DNA of 62,361 bases, the filler included. It is 4 parts of 4 records of this genome, joined end to end, with 100 filler letters (N's around TTAATTAATTAA, not from the genome) between each part and the next. Parts side by side here need not be neighbours in the genome. Positions count along the whole stretch, not along the records: positions 1 to 30,834 come from SRR20825019_3005; 3 more parts are not named here. One strand, given 5' to 3'. Numbering within the stretch: the first letter of the stretch is position 1; the number at the start of each line of letters is the position of its first letter. Positions 14,760 to 56,933 of this stretch are shown one piece after another. The position numbers and the translations under genes are program-made. The notes under the pieces were generated by a model. That model was not told the DNA's origin. It did not search any database and saw only the letters and a list, made by a program, of their open reading frames with translations.

Positions 14760-15134
14760 ATGAAAAAAATAACACGGCTCATTAATACTCACAGTTATCG
14801 CCTAGTTGCGACCTGTCTATTTGTGCTGGGATTTACATTTCTGTCTTTGAGTCAAAACAATGTTTGGATCTATGACTCTGCCGACAATGCTACAAAAAGC
14901 GTAAAGATCATTGAGCGCGGAGCCGGTGTATCGGAAGTCTCTCTTCTTCTAAAAAAAGACCATGGTTGGCAAAAATGTACCATTGTTTCCATCGACATTA
15001 TTCAAGAATATATAAAAGTACAGCTGACCTCCACTAAAGAAATTTATGAGTTGTTCATTGATTGGAGCAATGACAAAATCGTTGTAATGGATTCAAAAAA
15101 TCATAAAAAAAGCTATTGGCTTAGAAAAGCATAA
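14760..15134 (+). CDS. Small secreted protein, paralog 1
   Basis: Signal peptide; EYIKV..IYELFIDW..YWLRK shared with the next two ORFs. Confidence 0.75.
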   Translation: MKKITRLINTHSYRLVATCLFVLGFTFLSLSQNNVWIYDSADNATKSVKIIERGAGVSEVSLLLKKDHGWQKCTIVSIDIIQEYIKVQLTSTKEIYELFIDWSNDKIVVMDSKNHKKSYWLRKA

Positions 15135-15157
15135 ATCTTAAACCAAAATCTAATAAA

Positions 15158-15514
15158 ATGAAATGCACACTAAAAATAACCGGGTTCCTCCTATTCTTCC
15201 TCGCCTTGAGCGCATTCAATCAAAGTTACGCCCAAACAACTATTTGGAAGTTTGATGCCGCAACCAACGACGGAGGAATGGTTCAAATTACCTCCAACGG
15301 AGATGGCGAAGTAACAAAAGTTCAACTTGGAAAAAAAGGAGATGCCGCCTGGACGGAAACGACCATTCAACATGTTGACGATTACCATGAATACATTCGT
15401 GTAAAATCCGCACAAACGGGTCGTGTTTATGAACTAAACGTTGATTGGTACGGAGGAAAACTCGTAAAAACGCTTCCAGAAGGAACAGAACACACCTTTT
15501 GGCTTCGCAAGTAA
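15158..15514 (+). CDS. Small secreted protein, paralog 2
   Basis: Signal peptide (AQ); WKFDAA, EYIRVKS..GRVYELNVDW, FWLRK. Confidence 0.8.
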   Translation: MKCTLKITGFLLFFLALSAFNQSYAQTTIWKFDAATNDGGMVQITSNGDGEVTKVQLGKKGDAAWTETTIQHVDDYHEYIRVKSAQTGRVYELNVDWYGGKLVKTLPEGTEHTFWLRK

Positions 15515-15538
15515 ATAACCATCTAACATTTAAACATT

Positions 15539-15895
15539 ATGAGATCATTAAAATTAACAGGACTATTAATGCTATTACTCACACTAAATTCATTCAATCA
15601 AAGCATTGCACAAACAACAACATGGCGCTTTGATGCGGCCAATAACAGCGGATATACCGTGAGAATTACAGCCAGTGGAGAAAATCACTCTATTTCGAAA
15701 GTAGAATTAGGAAAAGTGGGGTCTAATTGGGTAGCCGCAGCTATTCAAGAAATGGACGACTACGAAGAATACATTCGGATCAAATCTGGTTCTACTGGCC
15801 GTATTTATGAATTATATGTCAACTGGGAAACAGGGAAGCTTACGCAAGTGAACCCAGAAGGAACAAAAGAAGTTTATTGGCTCAAAAAGTCATAA
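15539..15895 (+). CDS. Small secreted protein, paralog 3
   Basis: Signal peptide (AQ); WRFDAA, EYIRIKS..GRIYELYVNW, YWLKK. Confidence 0.8.
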   Translation: MRSLKLTGLLMLLLTLNSFNQSIAQTTTWRFDAANNSGYTVRITASGENHSISKVELGKVGSNWVAAAIQEMDDYEEYIRIKSGSTGRIYELYVNWETGKLTQVNPEGTKEVYWLKKS

Positions 15896-15911
15896 ACAAT
15901 TTCAAGCTAGA

Positions 15912-16896: not shown

Positions 16897-18846
16897 ATGG
16901 TAAGAATGATCATTGCACTGTTTCTGTTTTTCCCTGTGTTTTCATGGGGTCAAATTTCCCAGTTTGATGTAAGTAGTTCAAAAATTTCCCTTCCTATCAC
17001 TACCACGTTAGGTTCGGATCAGGTGCTTAAACTTGGTTCTTCTTTGCTCTCCACGCGAGGAAATGATTATGTCGCTCCAAAAAACAACCTCGCTAACTAT
17101 TTTCAAAGCGCAATAACATTCGAAGAAAAACTTAACCATCCAGAACGGGTTTTTAAACTAAAAATAGACCTTTTCTATTGGTACACCATCACTCAAGAAG
17201 ATGAAAAAGCACTTCAGCTTGGTAGTGAATTAGAGGTGCTTTGCAAAAAATATGAAATAGAAGACGAGAAGTATTTCGTGATGGCTTTGTTCGATCTCTA
17301 TAAAAAATTGGAGCTTTTTGAAGGTATGCTCGGGCTTGTTCCCGAACTCCATCGCATGAACGATTTGTACGGAGGTGTGCGAAATCCTAATTATTCCATC
17401 GAATTTGATCTAGCAACGATTCAATACAGCATTGGAAATTACGAGGAAGCCATTAAAGGTTATTTATTTCAATCGGCTATTTTTAGTAAAAAAGGCGACC
17501 AACTATTCAAGGCGAGCATGTACAATAATGTTGGGTTATGTTATCGTTCACTCAACAATCGAGTGAAAGCCGAAGAATACTTCAAACTTGCCATCAAAGA
17601 ACTAAAAATGCCCTCAGAATTGGTCGGAGAAATTAAAGAATCCATTTATCTCGATTACTTTGAAGACATCATTCGCGCCAACTTGGGTGAACTCGAGATT
17701 CAAAAAGGAAACTATGCTGCCGCTATTTCAGGCTATAAGAAAGAACTCTCTTGGAGAGGAAAAATAGACGAAAAAAGCACCTACATAAACGCTTACTTCA
17801 ACCTTGCCAACACCTATTACTTGATCGGTGAATACGGTCAATCGCTTCGTTATCTAGACAGTGTATTTACAGATGTTGGCAGAGTACAAACGACAAAAAC
17901 ACACATTAAAGTACTCGAACTTAGAGGCAAGTTAGCGCTTGCACAGAATAATCAACTCGCTGCGGATGCTTATTTTAGGCGAAAAAACGAAATGTCGGAC
18001 TCGCTCCTGCAGCTAGGAATTAGTCGACGGCACCTTTTGGCCACCGCTCGGTTCAAAACAGAAGAAAAAGAAAAGCAAATCAATGTTCTGAAAGAGGAAG
18101 TTAGCGTCGCTGAAAGGATCAAACGTTACCAACTCATTGCCATTGTTCTTATTGCTGCTATTCTGGTTTTACTCACCTACTTTTATCTTCGAATTGTCAA
18201 ACATCGAAAGCAACTTTCTCAGCAAAAATCACTTTTAGAAACTTCTCTGAAGGAAAAAGAAGTTCTTCTCAAAGAGGTACATCATCGCGTAAAAAACAAC
18301 CTTCAAGTGGTTTCGGGAATTCTACAGCTTCAATCTACCAAGCTCACGGACAGTTTAGCTTTGCGTGTTTTTGAAGAGTCTCAACAGCACATTCAAAGCA
18401 TGGCGTTAGTTCACCAAATGCTGTACAAGGACAATGAAAACAGCGTTATTAATGTCCAAGACTACTTAGAAAAACTCGTTTTAGCGTCGTTGGAGTCTCA
18501 TTCAGAAACGCATGTTGAAACAACGTTAGAAATTACAATTCATGGAGATCTACACTTAGACAAAGTAATTCCACTTGGGTTAATCGTAAGTGAGTTAATT
18601 ATCAACTCATTAAAACATGCTTTCAAAGAAACTTCTGGGGAAATTAAGCTGACTTTACGAAAGAATGATTCGTCATTGTTCGAATTTATCTATACCGACA
18701 ACGGATGTGGTTTTACAGATGACGTTTCTACCTCATCCAACAACTCAATGGGATTAAAATTAGTTCGTATGTTAGCCGAAGAAATGCAAGGGGACATAAC
18801 TATCTCTGGAAAAAACAGCTTTAAATGTGTATTGATCTTTCCATAA
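16897..18846 (+). CDS. TPR-containing sensor histidine kinase (HisKA_2 type)
   Basis: TPR helices, TM, EVHHRVKNNLQ, ELIINSLKHAF, DNGCG, SMGLKLV. Confidence 0.93.
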   Translation: MVRMIIALFLFFPVFSWGQISQFDVSSSKISLPITTTLGSDQVLKLGSSLLSTRGNDYVAPKNNLANYFQSAITFEEKLNHPERVFKLKIDLFYWYTITQEDEKALQLGSELEVLCKKYEIEDEKYFVMALFDLYKKLELFEGMLGLVPELHRMNDLYGGVRNPNYSIEFDLATIQYSIGNYEEAIKGYLFQSAIFSKKGDQLFKASMYNNVGLCYRSLNNRVKAEEYFKLAIKELKMPSELVGEIKESIYLDYFEDIIRANLGELEIQKGNYAAAISGYKKELSWRGKIDEKSTYINAYFNLANTYYLIGEYGQSLRYLDSVFTDVGRVQTTKTHIKVLELRGKLALAQNNQLAADAYFRRKNEMSDSLLQLGISRRHLLATARFKTEEKEKQINVLKEEVSVAERIKRYQLIAIVLIAAILVLLTYFYLRIVKHRKQLSQQKSLLETSLKEKEVLLKEVHHRVKNNLQVVSGILQLQSTKLTDSLALRVFEESQQHIQSMALVHQMLYKDNENSVINVQDYLEKLVLASLESHSETHVETTLEITIHGDLHLDKVIPLGLIVSELIINSLKHAFKETSGEIKLTLRKNDSSLFEFIYTDNGCGFTDDVSTSSNNSMGLKLVRMLAEEMQGDITISGKNSFKCVLIFP

Positions 18847-18858
18847 ACATTAACTAAA

Positions 18859-19578
18859 ATGAGTCAGAAAGTATACGTCGTTGAGGACATGGCCGTGACA
18901 CGAGCTTCCATTATTTCCACCCTTGAACAAAATGACATTCAAGTACTGGGAAGCGCAGCGAGTGCTGAAATTGCTTGGAACGAAATTCAAGAATTAGCTG
19001 TTGATCTCGTCTTGATAGATATCAATCTTGCAGGAGAAAAAGATGGATTGTGGCTTGCTTCGCAAATAAAAGCCTCCCTTCCAATTGGCATTCTCTTTCT
19101 TACGGCGTACGGTGATCGAGATACGCTTGAAAAAATTAAACATGCCAATGCCGATGGCTATATTCAAAAACCGTTCAAAGCTCCTACATTGATCGCGAAT
19201 ATTGGAATTGTCATTCAGAATCTTGCTACAAGAAATTCAACCATTGAACCTCCCAAGCAAAGCGAAATCATCGTAAAAAGCGGAGGAAAACAAGTGTTTA
19301 TTCATCCTTCAGATATAAAATTCATTCGCTCCGATGGTAATTACTTAGAAATTATCTGCTCAAAAAAGCGCGAGATTACACGCATGAAAATCGGAGATCT
19401 TCTACAAGAACTTCCGGAAGGACAATTTATTCAGGCGCATCGGAGGTATGTGGTAAATGTCGGAAAGATAAACGCCGCAAATACAAATACGATCTGGATT
19501 GGCGAAGAAAAAATTCCAATTTCCGAGTCGTATAAAAAGCACGTTCAGGAGATTTTAAATCAAGCAAAAATACGCTAG
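18859..19578 (+). CDS. LytTR family response regulator
   Basis: REC (LIDINL, FLTAY, YIQKPF) plus LytTR (SDGNY, FIQAHRRYVVN, IPISESYK). Confidence 0.93.
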   Translation: MSQKVYVVEDMAVTRASIISTLEQNDIQVLGSAASAEIAWNEIQELAVDLVLIDINLAGEKDGLWLASQIKASLPIGILFLTAYGDRDTLEKIKHANADGYIQKPFKAPTLIANIGIVIQNLATRNSTIEPPKQSEIIVKSGGKQVFIHPSDIKFIRSDGNYLEIICSKKREITRMKIGDLLQELPEGQFIQAHRRYVVNVGKINAANTNTIWIGEEKIPISESYKKHVQEILNQAKIR

Positions 19579-21467: not shown

Positions 21468-21490
21468 GAAGAAAAATTGGTTAGAGAGAG

Positions 21491-21517
21491 AGGGGATGCG
21501 AGAGCGCCCCTTTTTTT
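21491..21517 (+). terminator. Intrinsic terminator
   Basis: AGGGG..GC-GAGA-GCGCCCC followed by T7. Confidence 0.7.
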
Positions 21518-21635
21518 ATGCGCTAAAATTGAGTCAGCGCAACATAATGATCTGTTTTTGCAACAAAACAACAATCCGTTACTAACCCGATTTTGTAGGT
21601 TTGTTGGTATAGAATACTAACTAACTACTTTTAAA

Positions 21636-23609
21636 ATGTATAACCTAGAAGTTCACTATCTCGATGTCGGTCAAGGCGACTGTACTCTAATTGTTATTCG
21701 AGGCGAAGAGGAAGAAAACCAAACAACAGAATTTGACGAGCGAATACTTAAAACTATTCTGATCGATTGTGGGACGAAAGGTACCTCAACTATTGCTGGA
21801 AATGATTATTTCGCTAGTAGTACCGTGCCCTGGCAGGTATTAAACAGAAAATTACAACAACTACGAATACAGAGAATTGATATTTTAATCGTTACTCACT
21901 TTGATGAAGATCACTTCAATGGGATTGTAGCCATGCTTGAAGAATATCAAGCAATTGGCGAAAACCCGACTAGGAAAGAGCACATTCGCCTAAGAGGTTT
22001 ACTTACCGGAACGAAAATCTACGATCAAGGTGTTATCTTCCTAAAATCCCATGCTGCGTTCAGATCAGAACCCCCTGAATACTTTTCCATGTTGAATTCT
22101 CATAATTTAAGAGAGCAACCAATATGGTGGGATGCTGACCGAGAAGAAGAATATGATTCCGCGGAAACCTTCCGAGAAACTCTAACAAATTTTACGTACA
22201 ATACTGGGTTTGGACCTACATCAATATTACCAACAAAGAATAGAAAAGATCCTACTACGTCCTTTACGGGACAGGAACTATACGAAAAATACAGTAACGT
22301 TATTAAAAATAATAGAATAGAACGCCAAACGGAGCGCGTCTTTGTGGGTCATTTTACACAACATAAGGATGGGATAGGTCCTATTCTAAGCGATGCTTTT
22401 GATCCTAATGCAGGACCTGTCCCAGATGTCGCTCCTCCAGATTGGGTGCGCATTCAAAAAAAGCTATGGGGGCCAACCTCGTCCGTTCTAAATGAGGAAT
22501 ACATCTCTGATAGAAATTCTTTTTGGACGTGGGCTCGTAAATCGACCAATTTAACGATCCCTGGTAGAAGTAGTAGACCATCAAAGAGAACTAAAGGGTT
22601 TCGTTATATTCCCATTGAAAGAGCCCCTGAAATGTACTCTGTAAATGCACTTCCGTTAGACCACCTTATTGGTGAAGACATCCTCTTCGATACGTTTAAA
22701 GGGGCAATTCAGTTCACTTGTATTGCCGCAAATGGTCGAGCATTAAAAGAAATTGAACAAAATGGCCTCGATGAACACGGCAAGCCAATAAAAACTATAC
22801 GTACAAAGCGGGCATATTCGGGACAAGGAACCGACAATCACTTCGGTCTTGGTTTTCTCCTTAAGTATGAAAATTTTACTCATTGGTTCGGAGGAGATCT
22901 TGAACAAGAACAAGAAGAGGCAAGCATTGATGCAATGCATATGTTAGCTCCAAAAGGTCTCACTGCGATGAAAGCCAGTCATCATGGTAGCAACAAGGCT
23001 TCAACAAATATTTTTTTACGAGAATTGACCCCGGCCGTGGTGTTTATTTCCGCTGGAAAAGATGGAAACCAACTTCCTGGTGTTGAAACACTTAATCGTC
23101 TCAATAATCATTCATTTGTTAAGCATGTATTTATGACGGGAACCGATGAATACAAAGAAAAAAATATGAGCCGTCTACCAGATAACTTTCCCTATAATTT
23201 AACAATTACTACACCAAACAGCAAGTTTTTTATAGCCGGATCGGAAGATGCGCCAGGTGATATTAAATTGAGTGTATCTTCTACTGACGCCTTGGAAATG
23301 TCTGGAAAAGTAGAGTTTATTGACCAAAATAGATTGTTTTACTTGAAGGATCCTTCTTCCTTCTCTCGATCCGTAGAACTATTCAGGAAACCTGCACCAA
23401 GATTCTTACAATTGTCTTCGCTAGATATTATTGAATACGTCGATACTAACAACGATCGAATGGATGTTGATCCTGAATTTACTAATGATGTAATTCTCAT
23501 TCGTCCATCGCACATACATGATTCGAACCCAGAGAAAACAATTCTGAGGGGAACGATAAAATCACAAATCAACAGAATTTCATTCCAAAAACCAACCACT
23601 AAAGAATAA
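21636..23609 (+). CDS. ComEC/Rec2-like metallo-beta-lactamase-fold hydrolase with large insertions
   Basis: LDVGQGD, LIDCG, THFDEDH (HxDxDH), GGDL, KASHHGS, FISAG; no signal peptide or TM; TAGGTTTG -7 element at 21596-21603. Confidence 0.85.
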   Translation: MYNLEVHYLDVGQGDCTLIVIRGEEEENQTTEFDERILKTILIDCGTKGTSTIAGNDYFASSTVPWQVLNRKLQQLRIQRIDILIVTHFDEDHFNGIVAMLEEYQAIGENPTRKEHIRLRGLLTGTKIYDQGVIFLKSHAAFRSEPPEYFSMLNSHNLREQPIWWDADREEEYDSAETFRETLTNFTYNTGFGPTSILPTKNRKDPTTSFTGQELYEKYSNVIKNNRIERQTERVFVGHFTQHKDGIGPILSDAFDPNAGPVPDVAPPDWVRIQKKLWGPTSSVLNEEYISDRNSFWTWARKSTNLTIPGRSSRPSKRTKGFRYIPIERAPEMYSVNALPLDHLIGEDILFDTFKGAIQFTCIAANGRALKEIEQNGLDEHGKPIKTIRTKRAYSGQGTDNHFGLGFLLKYENFTHWFGGDLEQEQEEASIDAMHMLAPKGLTAMKASHHGSNKASTNIFLRELTPAVVFISAGKDGNQLPGVETLNRLNNHSFVKHVFMTGTDEYKEKNMSRLPDNFPYNLTITTPNSKFFIAGSEDAPGDIKLSVSSTDALEMSGKVEFIDQNRLFYLKDPSSFSRSVELFRKPAPRFLQLSSLDIIEYVDTNNDRMDVDPEFTNDVILIRPSHIHDSNPEKTILRGTIKSQINRISFQKPTTKE

Positions 23610-23611
23610 TC

Positions 23612-26600
23612 ATGGAAAAAGAACTAACCATTGGTGACTCACTGTTAATAAGTCTTGACCAACTAGATTCAGCAGTTACCAAACGACTACTGTACAATCT
23701 AACAGACGATCAAAGGAGCTTAACAATTGAAGAAATAACACTACAAGATCAGATTCAAATTATTTCTGGAAATTTAAATAACATCACTTGGTCGATTCCA
23801 GGTATTTTACCTACCATAATAGATCTTTACTTAACAATTAGAGTCGAGTATATTGCTCACCAGAACCTTGTGCAAATAGAAAAAATATCCGGTGTATTTA
23901 CGCTAGACAATGAACATGTTCCATTCATTGGAAGAGAGACAAAAACGGGGGAAATACTTTTACACATTGATTCCGAGTCGAGCTCGAATCTTACATGGAA
24001 CAAAATATACACCCTTTTTCCCGCAACAAATAATCAAATTGAAAACATTTTGTCCACTCAAGAGCAACTTCTCTCGTCTGACATATTGATTGGTCTTGAA
24101 GGTGGTTTCATGACACTCTTGCACTCTACTACCTTTCAACTAAATAGTCAGTTTATTCCACTTCTCAAAAACGGAATAGCCGATGATTCAACGATAACCT
24201 TTACGCACTTTTTGCCAACTGGATCCGCACCGACACCACCTCTTCATTCTTGGTTTGCCCAAGGTAATTTCACTATCAAGAATTCACCGTACTTTAGTAT
24301 AAGACCTTCGCTAAACGGAGGTATGCATGCAGACCTTTTTTCTGGAGACAATGGTCTTCCGAGTCTTTCCGAAATTGCTGATTTCTTTGGATTTCACGAG
24401 CTTTCTGGCAAGCTAGCCTCATCATTCGAAGCACTACCCTTTTTCAAGAGTTCACTAATTGATGAATTAACCTTAAGCCAACTGTCTTTTACCATAGGTA
24501 CAGATCGTAGTTCATTCATCGATGCAACTATTTCCGGATCAACCAAATTAGACAACTATCAATTCAACTTCTCCTTCACACTTCCTCATTTTTCGCTAAA
24601 CCTAGCATTGGAAAAAACTACACCCATTCCCGTTAATGTCATTGTTAACTCATTTTTTCCAGGCGGAGTAGGACTCTCCGACGGCATGGAGATTTCTCAA
24701 TTAGAAGGATCTATTAACACAGAACCCCTCTCTATTGAATTTGGGTTGAGTGTAAAAAATATTTGGAAATTTGACATTGGAAAAACTCCTTTCGAGTTAC
24801 AAGAAGTAAGTGTTTCCTTCCTAAAACGACGAGACCAAAATAGTAGAGGTAGTATTCGCGCCCTGCTCCAATTAGGCTCTGTTGACTTTCAGTTATCTGC
24901 TGCAAATCAAGCGGAAAGCAGTTCCGAAGGATGGTTATTCGAAACAATTGTCGCCCAAAACGCAGGAATTAGCTTAAAAAATATCGTATCCCAATTTGCG
25001 GAGTGGTTTCACTTTGAATCGCCAAAGGATTTGCCCAATATTACACTGAATGACATTCACCTAAGCTTTCACACTAAATCGCATGAATTTAGACTTAGTG
25101 GAACTGCTATTCTTGAAGAAAATTTTGGCGCACTACAAAAAGGTGAAATTACTCTTTCAGTTGGCCTTTCAAAAGAACAAGGTGATGAGAAGCATACACT
25201 CGAAATTATTTTAAACGGAAGCATAACCATAAATCAAGCTGTACTGGCATTCGAAGCGAACTTCGGCACATCTGATTGGGGCTTTCATCTCAACTGGAAC
25301 GAAACCGAAGGAGTCAGGTTAAATTTACTAGAACTCGTTCATGCAATTGACCCAAACGCTGATTTATCAAGTATTCCACAAGAAGTTACAAACGCCTTTA
25401 CCATTTCATCGGCCGATTTATCTTACCAGCATAACAATCGTGAAATTTCCATGTCCATGTCCACAAAAGGTGGAGAACATGCCGTCTTTTCGGCCCAAAA
25501 ACCAAATGGAAAACTTGATGTACTTTTAGGTGTTGGTTACAAAAAAGCAGAAGACCTTCCTACTAACCTTGGAAGTCAACTATCGAATATTAAGAATATT
25601 GACCTAAATGAACTTTGGTTTCTTGTAGGAAAACTATCCTCTGGAAATTCACTCCCAGAACTCCCCATTGTATTTCCTTTCGACTTTAAAACGAACGACT
25701 CTGAGGCTTTCATAAAACTAATGGCTGTTCTTGATCTAGAATCTGGTCATAGTCACCCTGGTTTGGCTTCCCTTAAAGAGCATTTACCAGATCCTGAACT
25801 AATTCTTATTGCAGCTATAACTGAAAAGAAAGGAGAGGTTGGCATTACCCTTAAAGCCGAACTATCAGGAGACCTTGAAATTCCATTAAGCGATGAAAAC
25901 GTGCTAGCTTTGGAAGATTGTTACCTTCAATTCGATTATCACGATAGCCTTTTTGAAATAATCCTCGGAGGAACGATGCACTTCGTTATTGATCATTTAC
26001 CCATTTCTCCTTCTCTTCAACTCATAGTAAGTAATCATGGATTAGAAGCCGAAGTAGACTTAACATTTGGTGACGATATCCACGAAGGTTGGCACCCATT
26101 TGGCATTGAAGGACTGACCGTAGATAAAATTGGACTCCTTCTCGGTATCGACTTTGAAACCTCTGGGATAGAATTTGGTCTCTTTGGAAAATTTTCAATT
26201 ACCGATCAAAAGCATGGTTCTGAAGCTAAGAAGAACAATATAGACTTCGGAATAGTGCTCGAGATGATTGGTGAGGTTCCAAACCCTGAATATTTTGCGT
26301 TGAATATTCAAGAGATTGATTTTACCGAACTCGCAAAACTATTCATCGGAACCTCAAAAGATGGAACCAACTCAATAACTTCTACCTTAAAAGGTGAAAA
26401 TCTGTCTATTTATTGGGCGGAAAAAGTGCTTACACTTCCTGATGGGACAAAAACAAATCCATTATTTGGACTGCATGGAGAGTTTGATATTTTTGGATGG
26501 AAAGCGTACGCCCATCTGGACGTTCATGCGGATTCTGGAATTCGTGGTGATGCTCAAACCGATAAAATTGATTGGGGAATTTTTCAGCTTTCAGGGAACG

Positions 26601-28021
26601 GCAAGGAACTAATCATATACAAAGACAATCAAGGAAATATTGTTTCTAATGCAGACATCCGTAATCGCTCTGAAGACCAAACCGTAAAACCTTTTACGAT
26701 AGTCCATGCTGGTGGTCCAGTTATTCATTTCGACAGTTCAACGTCTCCCTTTCTAAATGCGAGTATTCATGCTAGGCTTCTCAGTTTTATTCACGCTGAA
26801 CTGGACGCTGAAATAACCAATACTGGATTCCTTTTTAACCTTCACTTTGAAATAGAACATATAACCAATTTTAGGTTGCACTGTGAACTTAAGGAAGGTA
26901 CAGATCTTACTGTAGATGGAAATTTCTTCGCTGGAATTCAGCTAGAACCATTAATTACTGCATTCAATCCTTTCCCAATTGAATTGGGTGTATTTGCAAA
27001 CATTCATCTGCACGTGAACGCAGCCGAACCACAAAAGTTTCAGTTATCCCTAAACGGAGGATTAGATGTTATGGGGGTAGAAATTCCATTTGTTGCCGTT
27101 AATGTGAAAGACTTCCCCGAAGACGCTAAGTTAATTCCACTCTGGCTTGCCGTTACTTTCACTGAAAATATTTTCCCAGGACTTCATGAATTATTTCAAA
27201 AGGCGTATGACGAACTCAAAAGTCAGCACAAACCCTTTGATGAGGCCAAGTATGCAGCTGCACTTGAGTTATTAGACTTTGCAGAGGCATGGAAAACATT
27301 TGTAGAAGAAGACATTGAAGAACTGAACCGTGAGCTTCATACTTCTGCACAAACTGCACGTGATTTGGCTAAAAAGATAACCAATCAGTTAGGCACCACC
27401 AGAAATGAAGGAAACAGCCTTAATAATAACGTAAAAGCCAAGCATGTTAGTGAAACAAAGCGATTAGATGAACAGGCCAAGCAGGTTGTAGATCAATCTC
27501 TGACCATTCGACAAAAAACATTTGATCGAAATGCGATTTGGATTGCTAATCACAGGAGGGAAATTAGAGAAATTAAAGATGAACAAACTCTTCTTCGCTC
27601 CACCATTAATGCATTTTGGGATGAACATGTACAAGAGTTCTCATCTGCAAAAACACCATCGGAGTTTCACCTTAAACTAATCGAAGTGAGCGAACTTGTT
27701 CAACAGCGAGTAGAAGCGCTAAAACTTCCCATTCCCGATGAGCATTTAACCTCTTTTGAAAACGGAGAACACCTTCATCGTACCAATGCTACTAACGATG
27801 ATTACAATCACTTCTTAAATGTCGAAGCCCGTTATCAACTATACCCCGAAATTAGCGGTAAATATACACCTCAAGCGGTCAATCATCATGCAACGATGAT
27901 ACGCACAGAACGTGTTTCAAGTGCCCGAGAATTGGCCATTACATGGGAAGCTGAACAACAAGCAACAACAATTATTGAACGAGCGCTTGAAGAAATGCGC
28001 GCTTTTTCAGCATCTAACTAA
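23612..28021 (+). CDS. Giant hypothetical protein: long amphipathic beta-strand region plus C-terminal helical/coiled-coil region
   Basis: 1469-aa ORF starting 2 nt after the MBL gene; alternating hydrophobic strands for ~1170 aa, then a charged helical tail. Confidence 0.8.
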   Translation: MEKELTIGDSLLISLDQLDSAVTKRLLYNLTDDQRSLTIEEITLQDQIQIISGNLNNITWSIPGILPTIIDLYLTIRVEYIAHQNLVQIEKISGVFTLDNEHVPFIGRETKTGEILLHIDSESSSNLTWNKIYTLFPATNNQIENILSTQEQLLSSDILIGLEGGFMTLLHSTTFQLNSQFIPLLKNGIADDSTITFTHFLPTGSAPTPPLHSWFAQGNFTIKNSPYFSIRPSLNGGMHADLFSGDNGLPSLSEIADFFGFHELSGKLASSFEALPFFKSSLIDELTLSQLSFTIGTDRSSFIDATISGSTKLDNYQFNFSFTLPHFSLNLALEKTTPIPVNVIVNSFFPGGVGLSDGMEISQLEGSINTEPLSIEFGLSVKNIWKFDIGKTPFELQEVSVSFLKRRDQNSRGSIRALLQLGSVDFQLSAANQAESSSEGWLFETIVAQNAGISLKNIVSQFAEWFHFESPKDLPNITLNDIHLSFHTKSHEFRLSGTAILEENFGALQKGEITLSVGLSKEQGDEKHTLEIILNGSITINQAVLAFEANFGTSDWGFHLNWNETEGVRLNLLELVHAIDPNADLSSIPQEVTNAFTISSADLSYQHNNREISMSMSTKGGEHAVFSAQKPNGKLDVLLGVGYKKAEDLPTNLGSQLSNIKNIDLNELWFLVGKLSSGNSLPELPIVFPFDFKTNDSEAFIKLMAVLDLESGHSHPGLASLKEHLPDPELILIAAITEKKGEVGITLKAELSGDLEIPLSDENVLALEDCYLQFDYHDSLFEIILGGTMHFVIDHLPISPSLQLIVSNHGLEAEVDLTFGDDIHEGWHPFGIEGLTVDKIGLLLGIDFETSGIEFGLFGKFSITDQKHGSEAKKNNIDFGIVLEMIGEVPNPEYFALNIQEIDFTELAKLFIGTSKDGTNSITSTLKGENLSIYWAEKVLTLPDGTKTNPLFGLHGEFDIFGWKAYAHLDVHADSGIRGDAQTDKIDWGIFQLSGNGKELIIYKDNQGNIVSNADIRNRSEDQTVKPFTIVHAGGPVIHFDSSTSPFLNASIHARLLSFIHAELDAEITNTGFLFNLHFEIEHITNFRLHCELKEGTDLTVDGNFFAGIQLEPLITAFNPFPIELGVFANIHLHVNAAEPQKFQLSLNGGLDVMGVEIPFVAVNVKDFPEDAKLIPLWLAVTFTENIFPGLHELFQKAYDELKSQHKPFDEAKYAAALELLDFAEAWKTFVEEDIEELNRELHTSAQTARDLAKKITNQLGTTRNEGNSLNNNVKAKHVSETKRLDEQAKQVVDQSLTIRQKTFDRNAIWIANHRREIREIKDEQTLLRSTINAFWDEHVQEFSSAKTPSEFHLKLIEVSELVQQRVEALKLPIPDEHLTSFENGEHLHRTNATNDDYNHFLNVEARYQLYPEISGKYTPQAVNHHATMIRTERVSSARELAITWEAEQQATTIIERALEEMRAFSASN

Positions 28022-28033
28022 AACCACAAAAAA

Positions 28034-30139
28034 ATGTCAAACGATAAAGTAAGCAAACTCGAAGAACTACTCGCCACATACGATGATAGTGTTCTGGATT
28101 TAGTGCATGAACACATGCAACAAAATAATAACGATGTTCGAGAGATGCGCATCGACGGTCACCCTGACACCCAAGCAGTTATTGATCGGGCACATGCGCT
28201 CCTGAATCAAGCAAATAGAATGGGACAGATTCATATCACAGAGCATCATACTGGAAGTCCACGTATTTTCTTCTCAGCAGGTAAAACCGTTAGCATGTGG
28301 AAAAACGGCGAGATTTCAAAAGTCCATATCGGTAAGAATTCTCATCCCGTGCGATCACTCACGTTCTCTTCCTACAAAGGAGCAGATGGAAAAAATTATG
28401 AGTTTGTTCACTTTCTTCTCGAAAAAAACACCATTCAACATCAACAAATTTCCATTAGTCTAGGAAATGATCAACAACAAATTCCAGGAAGCACCATTTT
28501 CGATATTGTTTACAACAATTATGATGCTTATTACTTGACCAATGAAGGGTTAGGAGTCGTTGAAATCACCTTTAACCACACAAAAGAGCAAACCATTATT
28601 CATCATGGTCACCGTAACATTCAAATTCCAGGTGGATTTACAGAAAAATCTAGAATAGAACCACGAATGACATTGGATGCTTCCAAAAAGCGCATGTACA
28701 TAATGGATCTAAATCGCGGTATCATTATGCTCGATTTAAACGCAAAAAATCCAACCCCCATACAAATCTTCACACTAAACCAACTCGCTTCACCTGTTAG
28801 CATTGCGTTTGATGAAGAGCAGCGGTTTTTACTAATTCACGATTCAGCTACCAAAAAAATATATGCTCATTCTGTAGATGCTAAATCTTCTTATCCAGCA
28901 TTTGCAAACTTTGGTCAATACCTTAAATTCCCTTCGGAATCTTTGCAATCTGGGACTGAATTTACCTTTAGTTGCTGGCTTAAGAAAGACGGTGTTCGCT
29001 CTAAAAGTTGGGAAGATCGATACAAAGACAGGCTATTAGGATTTCACTTTAGTCAAGACGAAAACTACCTTGTTTACCAGTACATTGTAGATGGAAAGCC
29101 CGTGAGCGAAACCCTTTATTTAGGAAATCTACAACGAGATAGCTGGTTTCATTTTGCATGGGTAAAACGAGGTCGTGAGTTCGAATTTTTTATAGATGGA
29201 AAAACGATTGGAACAACCTATGCTCCTGAATCGATTGATACATCTCGAAGAATTCCTAACAATCCCTTTGAATTCAACTTTAGTGTTCCTGGATATTTAG
29301 CTTCAGAAATTAGACTTTGGAACGTAGCCAAAGCGGCTAGTGAAATTAAAGATGCCATGAAACGATGGGTGACTAATCAACCCGAGATTGAAACCCTCTC
29401 GGGCTATTGGAGGCCAGAAGTAAATAACGGGGATACACTTTGGAAAAGTTCCGACCCAACAATTAAAGATTTGTCTGGACACGGAAATCACTGTGTTGGG
29501 AAAAGCATCCAATGGAAAATGGAAAGCTCTCCTTTAGATAAACTCATTCCTATTTATTCCACAAATTCTTGGAGTCGTCCTCATCAAGGGTTCACAGTAG
29601 ACTCACCTTTAAATCATATTTATTGGGTAGAAAATAAAATCGGTGGAAAAAACTTACTATTCAGGGGAAGTACATTAGCACACCTACCTGCAACACTTGT
29701 TTCAAATGTGCCAAACGACATCTTCGGTATTCATGCGGTAAGTGGCAGCAATAATGCATTTGAAGAACTCATATTAGCGCACAAAAAACGTCGAGACGCT
29801 TTTCAAAATATGATCCAAGAAATTTCTCATCAATTTGAAAGTGGACATCAGAATGTCATTCAAAATCATACGACTGTTTTAAATGCACATGGAACGGCTG
29901 ATGATCATGCTCAAAATGCCCAAAACAACAGAGAAGAGCGGAACGAAGTGCAACAGCAATTCGCTATTGTACTAGATGAAATGCATATCGCTGAAAAGAC
30001 GCTGGAACGCGAAACCGCAGACAAGCGTATTGCGGCAATAGCTCGAGCTCAGGAAATCGTATCAAACGCACATCTTGAGGCAAGTCGAATTAGACGAGAA
30101 ACGGGAGAACGCCTTTTAGCGGAAAGACGAAAAAAATAG
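28034..30139 (+). CDS. Beta-propeller-like + LamG/concanavalin-like + coiled-coil protein
   Basis: LamG motifs FTFSCWLK, WFHFAWV, FFIDGK, SEIRLWN, LSGYW, DLSGHGNH; blade-like LDASKKRMYIMD, SIAFDEE, TVDSPLNHIYWVE. Confidence 0.8.
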   Translation: MSNDKVSKLEELLATYDDSVLDLVHEHMQQNNNDVREMRIDGHPDTQAVIDRAHALLNQANRMGQIHITEHHTGSPRIFFSAGKTVSMWKNGEISKVHIGKNSHPVRSLTFSSYKGADGKNYEFVHFLLEKNTIQHQQISISLGNDQQQIPGSTIFDIVYNNYDAYYLTNEGLGVVEITFNHTKEQTIIHHGHRNIQIPGGFTEKSRIEPRMTLDASKKRMYIMDLNRGIIMLDLNAKNPTPIQIFTLNQLASPVSIAFDEEQRFLLIHDSATKKIYAHSVDAKSSYPAFANFGQYLKFPSESLQSGTEFTFSCWLKKDGVRSKSWEDRYKDRLLGFHFSQDENYLVYQYIVDGKPVSETLYLGNLQRDSWFHFAWVKRGREFEFFIDGKTIGTTYAPESIDTSRRIPNNPFEFNFSVPGYLASEIRLWNVAKAASEIKDAMKRWVTNQPEIETLSGYWRPEVNNGDTLWKSSDPTIKDLSGHGNHCVGKSIQWKMESSPLDKLIPIYSTNSWSRPHQGFTVDSPLNHIYWVENKIGGKNLLFRGSTLAHLPATLVSNVPNDIFGIHAVSGSNNAFEELILAHKKRRDAFQNMIQEISHQFESGHQNVIQNHTTVLNAHGTADDHAQNAQNNREERNEVQQQFAIVLDEMHIAEKTLERETADKRIAAIARAQEIVSNAHLEASRIRRETGERLLAERRKK

Positions 30140-30150
30140 TCTCTACAAAC

Positions 30151-30194
30151 AAAAAACCAAGCGTCTGATGTAATATCAAACGCTTGGTTTTTTT
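30151..30194. terminator. Bidirectional intrinsic terminator
   Basis: AAAAAACCAAGCGT...ACGCTTGGTTTTTTT between convergent genes. Confidence 0.85.
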
Positions 30195-30269
30195 ATAATC
30201 TATTTTCTGCGAATTGCGTGCTTAATTTTGACAAAAAAGTTGAACTCTTAAATCCTAGTTCGGTTAGAG

Positions 30270-30834: not shown

Positions 30835-30934
30835 NNNNNNNNNNNNNNNNNNNNNNNNNNNNNNNNNNNNNNNNNNNNTTAATTAATTAANNNNNNNNNN
30901 NNNNNNNNNNNNNNNNNNNNNNNNNNNNNNNNNN
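30835..30934. other. Artificial contig linker
   Basis: 44 N + TTAATTAATTAA (stops in all frames) + 44 N; composition changes abruptly. Confidence 0.98.
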
Positions 30935-38943: not shown

Positions 38944-39043
38944 NNNNNNNNNNNNNNNNNNNNNNNNNNNNNNNNNNNNNNNNNNNNTTAATTAATTAAN
39001 NNNNNNNNNNNNNNNNNNNNNNNNNNNNNNNNNNNNNNNNNNN
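38944..39043. other. Artificial contig linker
   Basis: Same N-TTAATTAATTAA-N structure. Confidence 0.98.
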
Positions 39044-56833: not shown

Positions 56834-56933
56834 NNNNNNNNNNNNNNNNNNNNNNNNNNNNNNNNNNNNNNNNNNNNTTAATTAATTAANNNNNNNNNNN
56901 NNNNNNNNNNNNNNNNNNNNNNNNNNNNNNNNN
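56834..56933. other. Artificial contig linker
   Basis: Same N-TTAATTAATTAA-N structure. Confidence 0.98.

Follow-up and report, generated by a model that had tools for sequence, protein, structure and literature searches.

The stretch of DNA analyzed here (the window, 62,361 nt, along the whole of which positions are numbered) carries, on a 30.8-kb contig with 38-40% GC, an operon of three genes encoding a metallo-beta-lactamase-type (MBL) hydrolase, a giant protein, and a protein with a beta-propeller and a LamG domain. We found that this trio belongs to a real, conserved and uncharacterised multi-gene system without a named counterpart, in agreement with the initial annotation, which could not match the three genes to any named system. 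At about even odds (a probability of roughly 0.5), the system is a modular toxin without export signals, by which a gated nuclease is delivered, plausibly to eukaryotic cells. The first gene is hereafter called the cargo, the second the giant or carrier, and the third the partner. No description of the giant family or of DUF6603, a related family, was found in the literature searched, a search that had most subscription journals and supplements outside its reach and leaves a mention in some survey possible.

Related loci were collected by motif scans, which returned 31 genome and 37 metagenome loci; 27 and 12 of these, respectively, encoded the giant, and the remaining 29 of the 68 were dropped as false positives. 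Together with two plasmid loci, 13 loci from whole genomes and the window, this gave a tally of 55, in which the classes of cargo and partner were assigned by hand, several loci are near-duplicates, and two loci with giants of the DUF6603 type (L104 and L109) were excluded. Judged by record title, the relatives are spread over Bacteroidota, Chloroflexota, Planctomycetota, Actinomycetota, Bacillota, Pseudomonadota and Acidobacteriota, where the phylum of some titled relatives is presumed. The order cargo, giant, propeller partner was found in 22 of the 42 loci with both flanks visible, and the cargo was an MBL in 15 of these 22, window included. Co-occurrence, proposed earlier as a check on the trio, was thereby established: homologs are co-located, in the same order and across phyla, and in some relatives the MBL and the giant are even fused. 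Fully orthologous trios occur in L096 (39/34/35% identity for the three proteins) and L070 (29/27/24%), where the genes lie -14 to +5 nt apart. The MBL is found at the N-terminus of the giant in P0008, P0014 and P0016 (three of the ten longest-type matches listed), and also in L068, which is nearly identical to P0008. In a midpoint-rooted tree of 52 giant cores, the window grouped with Crocinitomicaceae-type loci, all with MBL cargoes where the cargo was visible, while differing cargoes were found at neighboring tips (L101/L069 and L020/L005). The spread is patchy: the family of one Crocinitomicaceae record has the system in 9 of its 401 genomes, and another family in 5 of 151.

The first slot, visible in 47 loci, was occupied by an MBL in 21 (one fused), by an EEP-family protein in eight (one split), by a helical unknown protein in four, by an unknown protein of about 850 residues in two, by DUF4135 proteins in two, by an M91-like peptidase in one (E 7e-5, under the cut-off), and by other genes or none in nine. 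Among solved structures, the EEP cargoes come closest to DNase gamma and DNase I (E 1e-9 to 2e-8), so that two unrelated nuclease folds occupy one slot. For the helical cargo family no solved relative was found, and an 878-aa cargo, like the giant itself, matched unnamed clusters alone in the ESM Atlas, with low recognition. A variable enzyme module on a conserved carrier, as expected of AB and polymorphic toxins, was hence observed. The third slot, visible in 49 loci, held a propeller-type protein in 29, a radical-SAM protein in six, unannotated proteins of about 340 residues in two, a short helical protein in two, and other genes or none in ten. Its domains include LamG, PA-IL, crystallin, WD40 and LDLR-B, in proteins of 466-1934 aa. 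The division of labor suggested by the initial annotation, i.e. enzyme, scaffold or translocator, and receptor-binding subunit, fits these data and is strengthened by the swapping of cargoes and by the variety of lectins in the third slot.

The window MBL matches Pfam Lactamase_B (E 8e-8), and its nearest solved relatives are of the ComEC and Pce/CbpE types. All metal motifs of such enzymes (DxGQGD, HxxxDH, GD and HH) are present, as DVGQGD (residues 10-15), THFDEDH (87-93), GGD (419-421) and SHHGS (448-452); the earlier statement that the metal motifs are kept holds for these four and fails for a final histidine, discussed below. The long insertion noted earlier was confirmed, at about 230 residues beyond a ComEC-type PDB chain (284 vs. 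52 between matched blocks), and the spacing from the second motif to GGD is 325 residues, compared to 101-301 in 16 relatives. Also confirmed was the lack of the ComEC membrane helices, as no match to Pfam Competence was found, the ComEC_Rec2 profile scored 38 vs. 190 bits, and the best hydropathy was 1.05. Besides Pfam, PADLOC LmuA (E 1e-23), Avs1a (E 1.6e-10; 40 vs. 420 bits) and ComEC_Rec2 gave partial matches, far under the cut-off. The accessible parts of two reports describe the ComEC-related defense MBLs HamM, Avs1a and CanC as DNases gated by insertions and opened by proteases (PMC12799240, bioRxiv 10.1101/2025.11.14.688446). By its sequence, the window MBL is probably a gated DNase too, with the insertion lying between THFDEDH and GGD.

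Using a profile built from three sequences, the giant was found to belong to a family with 584 representatives (clusters at 50% identity) in a set of 1.84 billion at E<=0.001; at E<=1e-30 the number was 202. Pfam gave no match for the window giant and no family-level match to the core in 30 family members. Word-indexed protein searches returned two relatives each for the giant and the gene 3 protein, and a locus search with a three-sequence alignment found no related loci. Nothing matching the giant turned up among phage records, and scanning viral contigs for the motif yielded zero hits. For residues 275-1469, AlphaFold2 (54 sequences, pLDDT 78, pTM 0.47) predicts some 45 strands with short crossing helices, followed by long helices from residue 1172, i.e. 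an amphipathic antiparallel beta-meander with about 300 helical residues at the C-terminus. One face of the strands is 78% hydrophobic and the other 24%, with an alternation of 2.97 vs. 1.29 +/- 0.14 in 1000 shuffles. In the tandem repeats, six, six and four strands precede the successive helices. Foldseek against PDB gave no clear match for the model (TM <=0.11, ApoB100 at rank 2), VIA-align returned generic beta-barrels (best Z 9.6, rmsd 23) with no VPS13, ATG2, TamB or YhdP chain among the 50 rows listed, where a model of 1195 residues weakens single-domain matches, and a viral structure library gave TM <=0.14; these absences leave kinship possible. Matches of the tail to apolipoproteins and the ATP synthase b subunit, which score no better than those to designed helical bundles, were discarded as an effect of composition, as were matches to ZorA and RNA polymerase F.

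The resemblance to DUF6603 proteins that had been suspected by eye turned out to be half right. The N-terminal half of the giant is homologous to the DUF6603 giants of L104 and L109 (A4 profile at about 207-711, E 3.5e-68 and 2.5e-52), yet DUF6603 itself, although present in the library, did not match the window giant at E<=0.1, nor the 30 family members and 13 further open reading frames (ORFs). It matched just L104 and L109 (about 500 bits), two of 16 proteins tested, one of the others being an unrelated neighbor. The window giant is therefore not a member, and belongs to a sister lineage of the DUF6603 proteins.

Three further observations concern the giants. Histidine makes up 3.6-5.0% of the giant and partner in the window, L096 and L070, vs. 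1.7% in neighboring proteins, which could reflect pH sensing or metal binding. In P0113, a mannose-binding B-lectin domain lies inside the giant (residues 1327-1390), as if a binding module had been fused to the carrier. Broken or split frames of the giant or cargo were seen in L099 (7830-12119), L031, L003 and L102, from decay or assembly error.

For the gene 3 protein, a model based on eight sequences (pLDDT 60) shows helical ends and four-stranded blades flanking LamG, giving the predicted order N-terminal helices, YWTD-type beta-propeller, inserted LamG, closing blades and C-terminal helices. Foldseek matched it to the propellers of LRP2, LRP4 and LRP6 (E about 1e-9, with low whole-chain TM). 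Homology of the closing blade and helical tail links the window group to the rest of the family (hhalign 97.8%, E 1e-12), and on a Paenibacillus plasmid the propeller is found in bare form, with an S8 peptidase encoded after it. A complex prediction for giant residues 1174-1469 with the gene 3 protein scored 0.00 when run without alignments, and was counted neither for nor against an interaction.

A pointer to the target comes from basic clusters resembling nuclear localization signals (NLS), identified with NLS patterns and a strict basic cluster as the criterion. Such clusters were found in six of 13 MBLs of the window clade, vs. 1.4 expected by shuffling, often as a bipartite pair and C-terminal, and in six of ten other MBLs at varied positions. 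The total of 12 in 23 MBL cargoes compares to 19 in 185 control ORFs; Fisher's test of the clade against low-GC controls (14 of 123) gave p 0.004, a value uncorrected for kinship. On the sequence level, the NLS-like tails of many MBL cargoes point to the eukaryotic nucleus, e.g. that of a grazing or host protist.

From the genetic data and the predicted structures we infer a possible course of assembly, export, membrane crossing and activation, as well as a target. The three proteins would form one particle, with the cargo docked at the N-terminal end of the giant and the helical tails of the giant and the gene 3 protein paired into a stalk. LamG or other lectin domains of the latter would bind glycans of the target cell, and the hydrophobic face of the giant would bind lipid or membrane and aid the crossing of the cargo. 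The MBL would be a pro-DNase, shut by its long insertion and opened by proteolysis in the target, which could explain the lack of an immunity gene, while release would probably take place by lysis or in vesicles. Nuclear delivery into eukaryotes takes about half of the weight that we give to a delivered toxin. The resulting, most specific picture is tentative: a lipid-binding beta-meander giant (bridge- or lipoprotein-belt-like) would replace a pore or needle, and a lectin- or propeller-guided, protease-gated DNase with a nuclear-import signal would enter the nucleus of a protist acting as predator or host.

Several observations weigh against the delivery of a gated nuclease. After HHGS, 10 of 18 related MBLs have HP, but the window MBL reads LP and lacks the final histidine; its substrate may not even be DNA, because the phosphorylcholine esterases Pce/CbpE are among its nearest structures. 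No recognizable cargo was found in the first slot of 11 of the 47 loci, and the propeller partner is missing in 20 of 49, six of which have the radical-SAM gene instead. The cassette showed neither secretion genes nor secretion signals, and no membrane-spanning helix or pore is predicted for the giant from its hydropathy and from the model, which covers residues 275-1469. Strict basic clusters were found in none of the seven EEP cargoes, nor in the window MBL, which has just PSKRTK at residues 315-320 (nt 22578-22595), nor in L096, L097, L098, L102, L103 and P0014. The basic tails could merely bind DNA, and the related sequences are not independent.

Four other explanations were considered. 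In a system for lipid or nutrient scavenging, the lectin partner could anchor the giant to a surface, a phosphodiesterase (MBL or EEP) could clip head groups or DNA, and lipid could be collected or channeled along the hydrophobic sheet, much as by a bridge-like lipid transfer protein or a lipoprotein particle. The unequal strand faces of the giant are in line with this, as are strand repeats with a crossing helix that resemble the RBG description in the available part of the source (PMC7613979), C-terminal helices that are apolipoprotein-like in composition, and the kinship of the MBL to Pce/CbpE. We nevertheless consider it unlikely, given that peptidase-like, helical and unknown cargoes share the slot, that the EEP cargoes are DNase I-like, and that the cassette has NLS-like clusters, no export signal or membrane anchor, and a patchy distribution of about 2%. 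Anti-phage action inside the cell, in which infection sensed by the giant or the gene 3 protein frees the gated MBL DNase, which then kills the infected cell, would agree with the lack of export signals, with defense MBLs (LmuA and Avs1a) as the best family matches, with gating insertions as in HamM and Avs1a (PMC12799240, in its accessible part), and with the S8 peptidase after the pair on the Paenibacillus plasmid. However, those matches are all partial and far under the cut-off, the three window genes contain no protease, ATPase or NLR sensor domain, and only two of 94 neighbor proteins from 31 loci (genes within four positions, 100-900 aa, scanned without a control set) matched PADLOC at E<1e-15. 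The lectin-type domains of gene 3 also suggest extracellular action, and NLS-like clusters would have no role in a bacterium, so of the two functions put forward by the initial annotation, toxin delivery and anti-phage defense, we regard the latter as distinctly unlikely.

The cassette might also encode a chemically modified scaffold which shows interchangeable enzymes on the surface or matrix of the producer and is no weapon. Such a scaffold would be consistent with the modifying enzymes encoded nearby (radical SAM, FAD oxidase, methyltransferase-like and LanM-like), i.e. an FAD_binding_4 oxidase following gene 3 in several loci (seven Pfam matches, cluster c2), radical SAM after the giant in six, and DUF4135 in front of it in L019/L056. 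Yet these genes are missing from the window operon and from seven other window-clade loci with downstream genes visible, so that they appear dispensable here, and no anchor or signal was found; this explanation is likewise improbable. That the genes simply travel together, their products forming no single machine, could be argued from L009, L019, L053 and L071, where the giant lacks a partner or cargo. Against it speak the MBL-giant fusions, abutting or overlapping frames at 24-39% identity, and an order kept across phyla despite cargo swaps, and we hold it to be very unlikely.

The accessory genes show some regularities of their own. A radical-SAM gene directly after the giant defines a second subtype (L004, L008, L011, L016, L024 and L046), to which L004 adds more radical-SAM genes and glycosyltransferase genes. 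An FAD_binding_4 oxidase of about 500 aa is found after gene 3 in L005, L010, L017, L020, L030, L033, L045, L069 and L101, often followed by a protein of about 255 aa that is methyltransferase-like (SAM) by eye, without a Pfam match. Two DUF4135 genes, which we take to be of the LanM type, precede the giant in L019/L056. The repetitive tail of the giant may be a substrate for modification. In L028 (15902-20065), the trio is followed by a VgrG-like baseplate gene (Phage_base_V, Phage_GPD) and DUF6352, the sole link to an injection system seen in any locus. Cell-wall hydrolases (GH108-like; PG-binding/M74) are encoded no more than a few genes away from the giant in L047 (12852-13454), L071 (5437-5919) and L001 (12860-13615), a possible hint of lysis-coupled release. 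A lone distant giant is situated among insertion sequence elements on a plasmid of Mycetohabitans rhizoxinica (L071, 8177-11284), a genus that lives inside fungi.

Features of the operon in the window, with strand and basis or remark.
Feature	Positions	Strand	Basis or remark
5' hairpin with T-run	21485-21522	+	ends upstream Hsp20 gene; 5' edge of the unit; -18.1 kcal/mol
Possible Bacteroidota -7 promoter element TAnnTTTG, weak	21596-21603	+	TAGGTTTG; 8% by chance
Gene 1, cargo (A): 657-aa ComEC/Pce-type MBL hydrolase	21636-23609	+	ORF call, Pfam
Gene 2, giant carrier (B): 1469 aa, no Pfam family	23612-28021	+	ORF call, Pfam, model
Tandem repeats of about 115 aa, up to six strands plus helix, giant residues ~230-600	24299-25411	+	hhalign 87-97% between repeats
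Signature W-x-E-x4-L-P-D-G, in the conserved core (residues ~740-1180) that replaces DUF6603	26414-26478	+	
Long amphipathic helices (predicted), giant residues 1172-1469	27125-28018	+	model, composition
Gene 3, putative binding partner (C): 701 aa, propeller and LamG	28034-30139	+	ORF call, Pfam, model, Foldseek
LamG (Laminin_G_3), gene 3 residues 294-438	28913-29347	+	Pfam E 1.1e-7, above curated cut-off
3' inverted repeat, probable bidirectional terminator	30148-30198	.	-22.0 kcal/mol; A-tract before, T-tract after; 3' boundary

The ORF coordinates bear out the layout described earlier, with three co-oriented genes separated by 2 nt (genes 1 and 2) and 12 nt (genes 2 and 3). Hairpins with adjoining T-runs were recovered on both sides, as had been claimed, with energies obtained by folding without a shuffle control; a consensus terminator scanner listed neither. 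TAnnTTTG is the -7 promoter motif of Bacteroidota. It is indeed present in front of gene 1, where it had been proposed as a promoter element, and was downgraded, as it has an 8% chance of occurring in shuffles of the 168-bp spacer before gene 1 and lies within 120 nt of the first gene in just three of 18 related loci. Within the stretch bounded by the terminators, ORF calls revealed no small ORF next to or in between the three genes that could be an immunity gene, which fits a eukaryotic target or a gated enzyme and, equally, a non-toxin. None of the three proteins matched Por_Secre_tail in Pfam, i.e. none has the type IX secretion system (T9SS) tail whose absence had been noted, while three other ORFs of the contig do. 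No signal-like N-termini were seen in the trio, judged from hydropathy (best over 19 residues 1.05 for the MBL, 1.38 for the giant and 0.94 for the gene 3 protein). The GC content of the operon equals that of its contig, and the host is taken to be a member of the Bacteroidota because the contig carries T9SS-tail proteins and has 38-40% GC.

Shortly upstream of the cassette, at 16897-19578, lie a TPR histidine kinase and a response regulator; the same pair is found upstream in the Bacteroidota loci L097, L098 and L026, and may be regulatory or there by chance. At about 14760-15900, three paralogous ORFs of 118-124 aa (cluster c78) stand in tandem, the first of them without a Pfam match. The window consists of four unrelated contigs joined by runs of N with a TTAATTAATTAA linker (30835-30934, 38944-39043 and 56834-56933), so neighborhood across the linkers is meaningless. 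The second contig (about 30935-38943, 59% GC) looks eukaryote-like, with eIF3_p135 and EEP matches, and the third and fourth look bacterial.

The giant represents a large family without annotation or clear solved relative, and yet it belongs to a fixed cassette with swappable enzymes in seven phyla. If these enzymes are delivered, the principle of translocation would be unlike pores, needles and RHS shells, the system would be a candidate weapon in interactions between bacteria and protists, and the sister cassettes with DUF6603 would gain a function. Under the other explanations, it would be a lipid-bridge-like protein without membrane anchor or a new defense architecture. Being minimal, with no accessory enzymes and with terminators on both sides, the window trio is the member most readily tested.

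In cytolethal distending toxin and Tc toxins, a single operon encodes a variable (e.g. DNase I-like) enzyme together with carrier subunits and subunits that bear lectin domains. Neither the giant nor the gene 3 protein matches the subunits of these AB-type toxins in sequence, and Tc and RHS chains reached only background level against the giant in Foldseek (TM <=0.08). With the HamM, Avs1a and CanC defense systems, as far as the accessible text describes them, the cassette shares a ComEC-related MBL with an HxDxDH-type motif and with long insertions, by which access to the active site could be blocked. Unlike AVAST I, Hachiman, Lamassu and Canu, the window has no adjacent trypsin-like or caspase protease or sensor ATPase; its partners are instead a beta-meander giant and a lectin/propeller protein, and the location in defense islands typical of nuclease-protease systems was not found (the 2 of 94 above). 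Bridge-like lipid transfer proteins (VPS13, ATG2 and AsmA-like) resemble the giant in their repeated antiparallel meander, crossing helix and single hydrophobic face, according to the portions available (PMC7613979, PMC13542527). The RBG repeat is, however, defined there by five strands and a crossing loop in at least 150 aa (PMC7613979), whereas that of the giant has about 115 aa and four to six strands, with no membrane anchor; as the family is present in monoderm phyla, the giant is not a bridge between inner and outer membrane. Closer in sequence are the DUF6603 (PF20248) cassettes, which have a homologous N-terminal repeat half and in which an enzyme gene can also precede the giant (an S8 peptidase in L109), although the window giant has a different core and a helical tail, and the downstream genes are of other families. 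The umbrella particles of Streptomyces (UmbA/B/C) are described, in the part of the report available, as having a variable toxin, a coiled-coil stalk and diversified lectin domains (PMC11062931). In contrast to these, Pfam and hydropathy revealed no ALF repeats, trypsin-like UmbA or Tat/Sec signals in the window trio; there is no immunity gene, and the cargo of the cassette is a separate gene or an N-terminal fusion, not a C-terminal domain. With the umbrella particles as so described, the cassette nonetheless has in common a conserved carrier, a swappable enzyme and diversified lectins.

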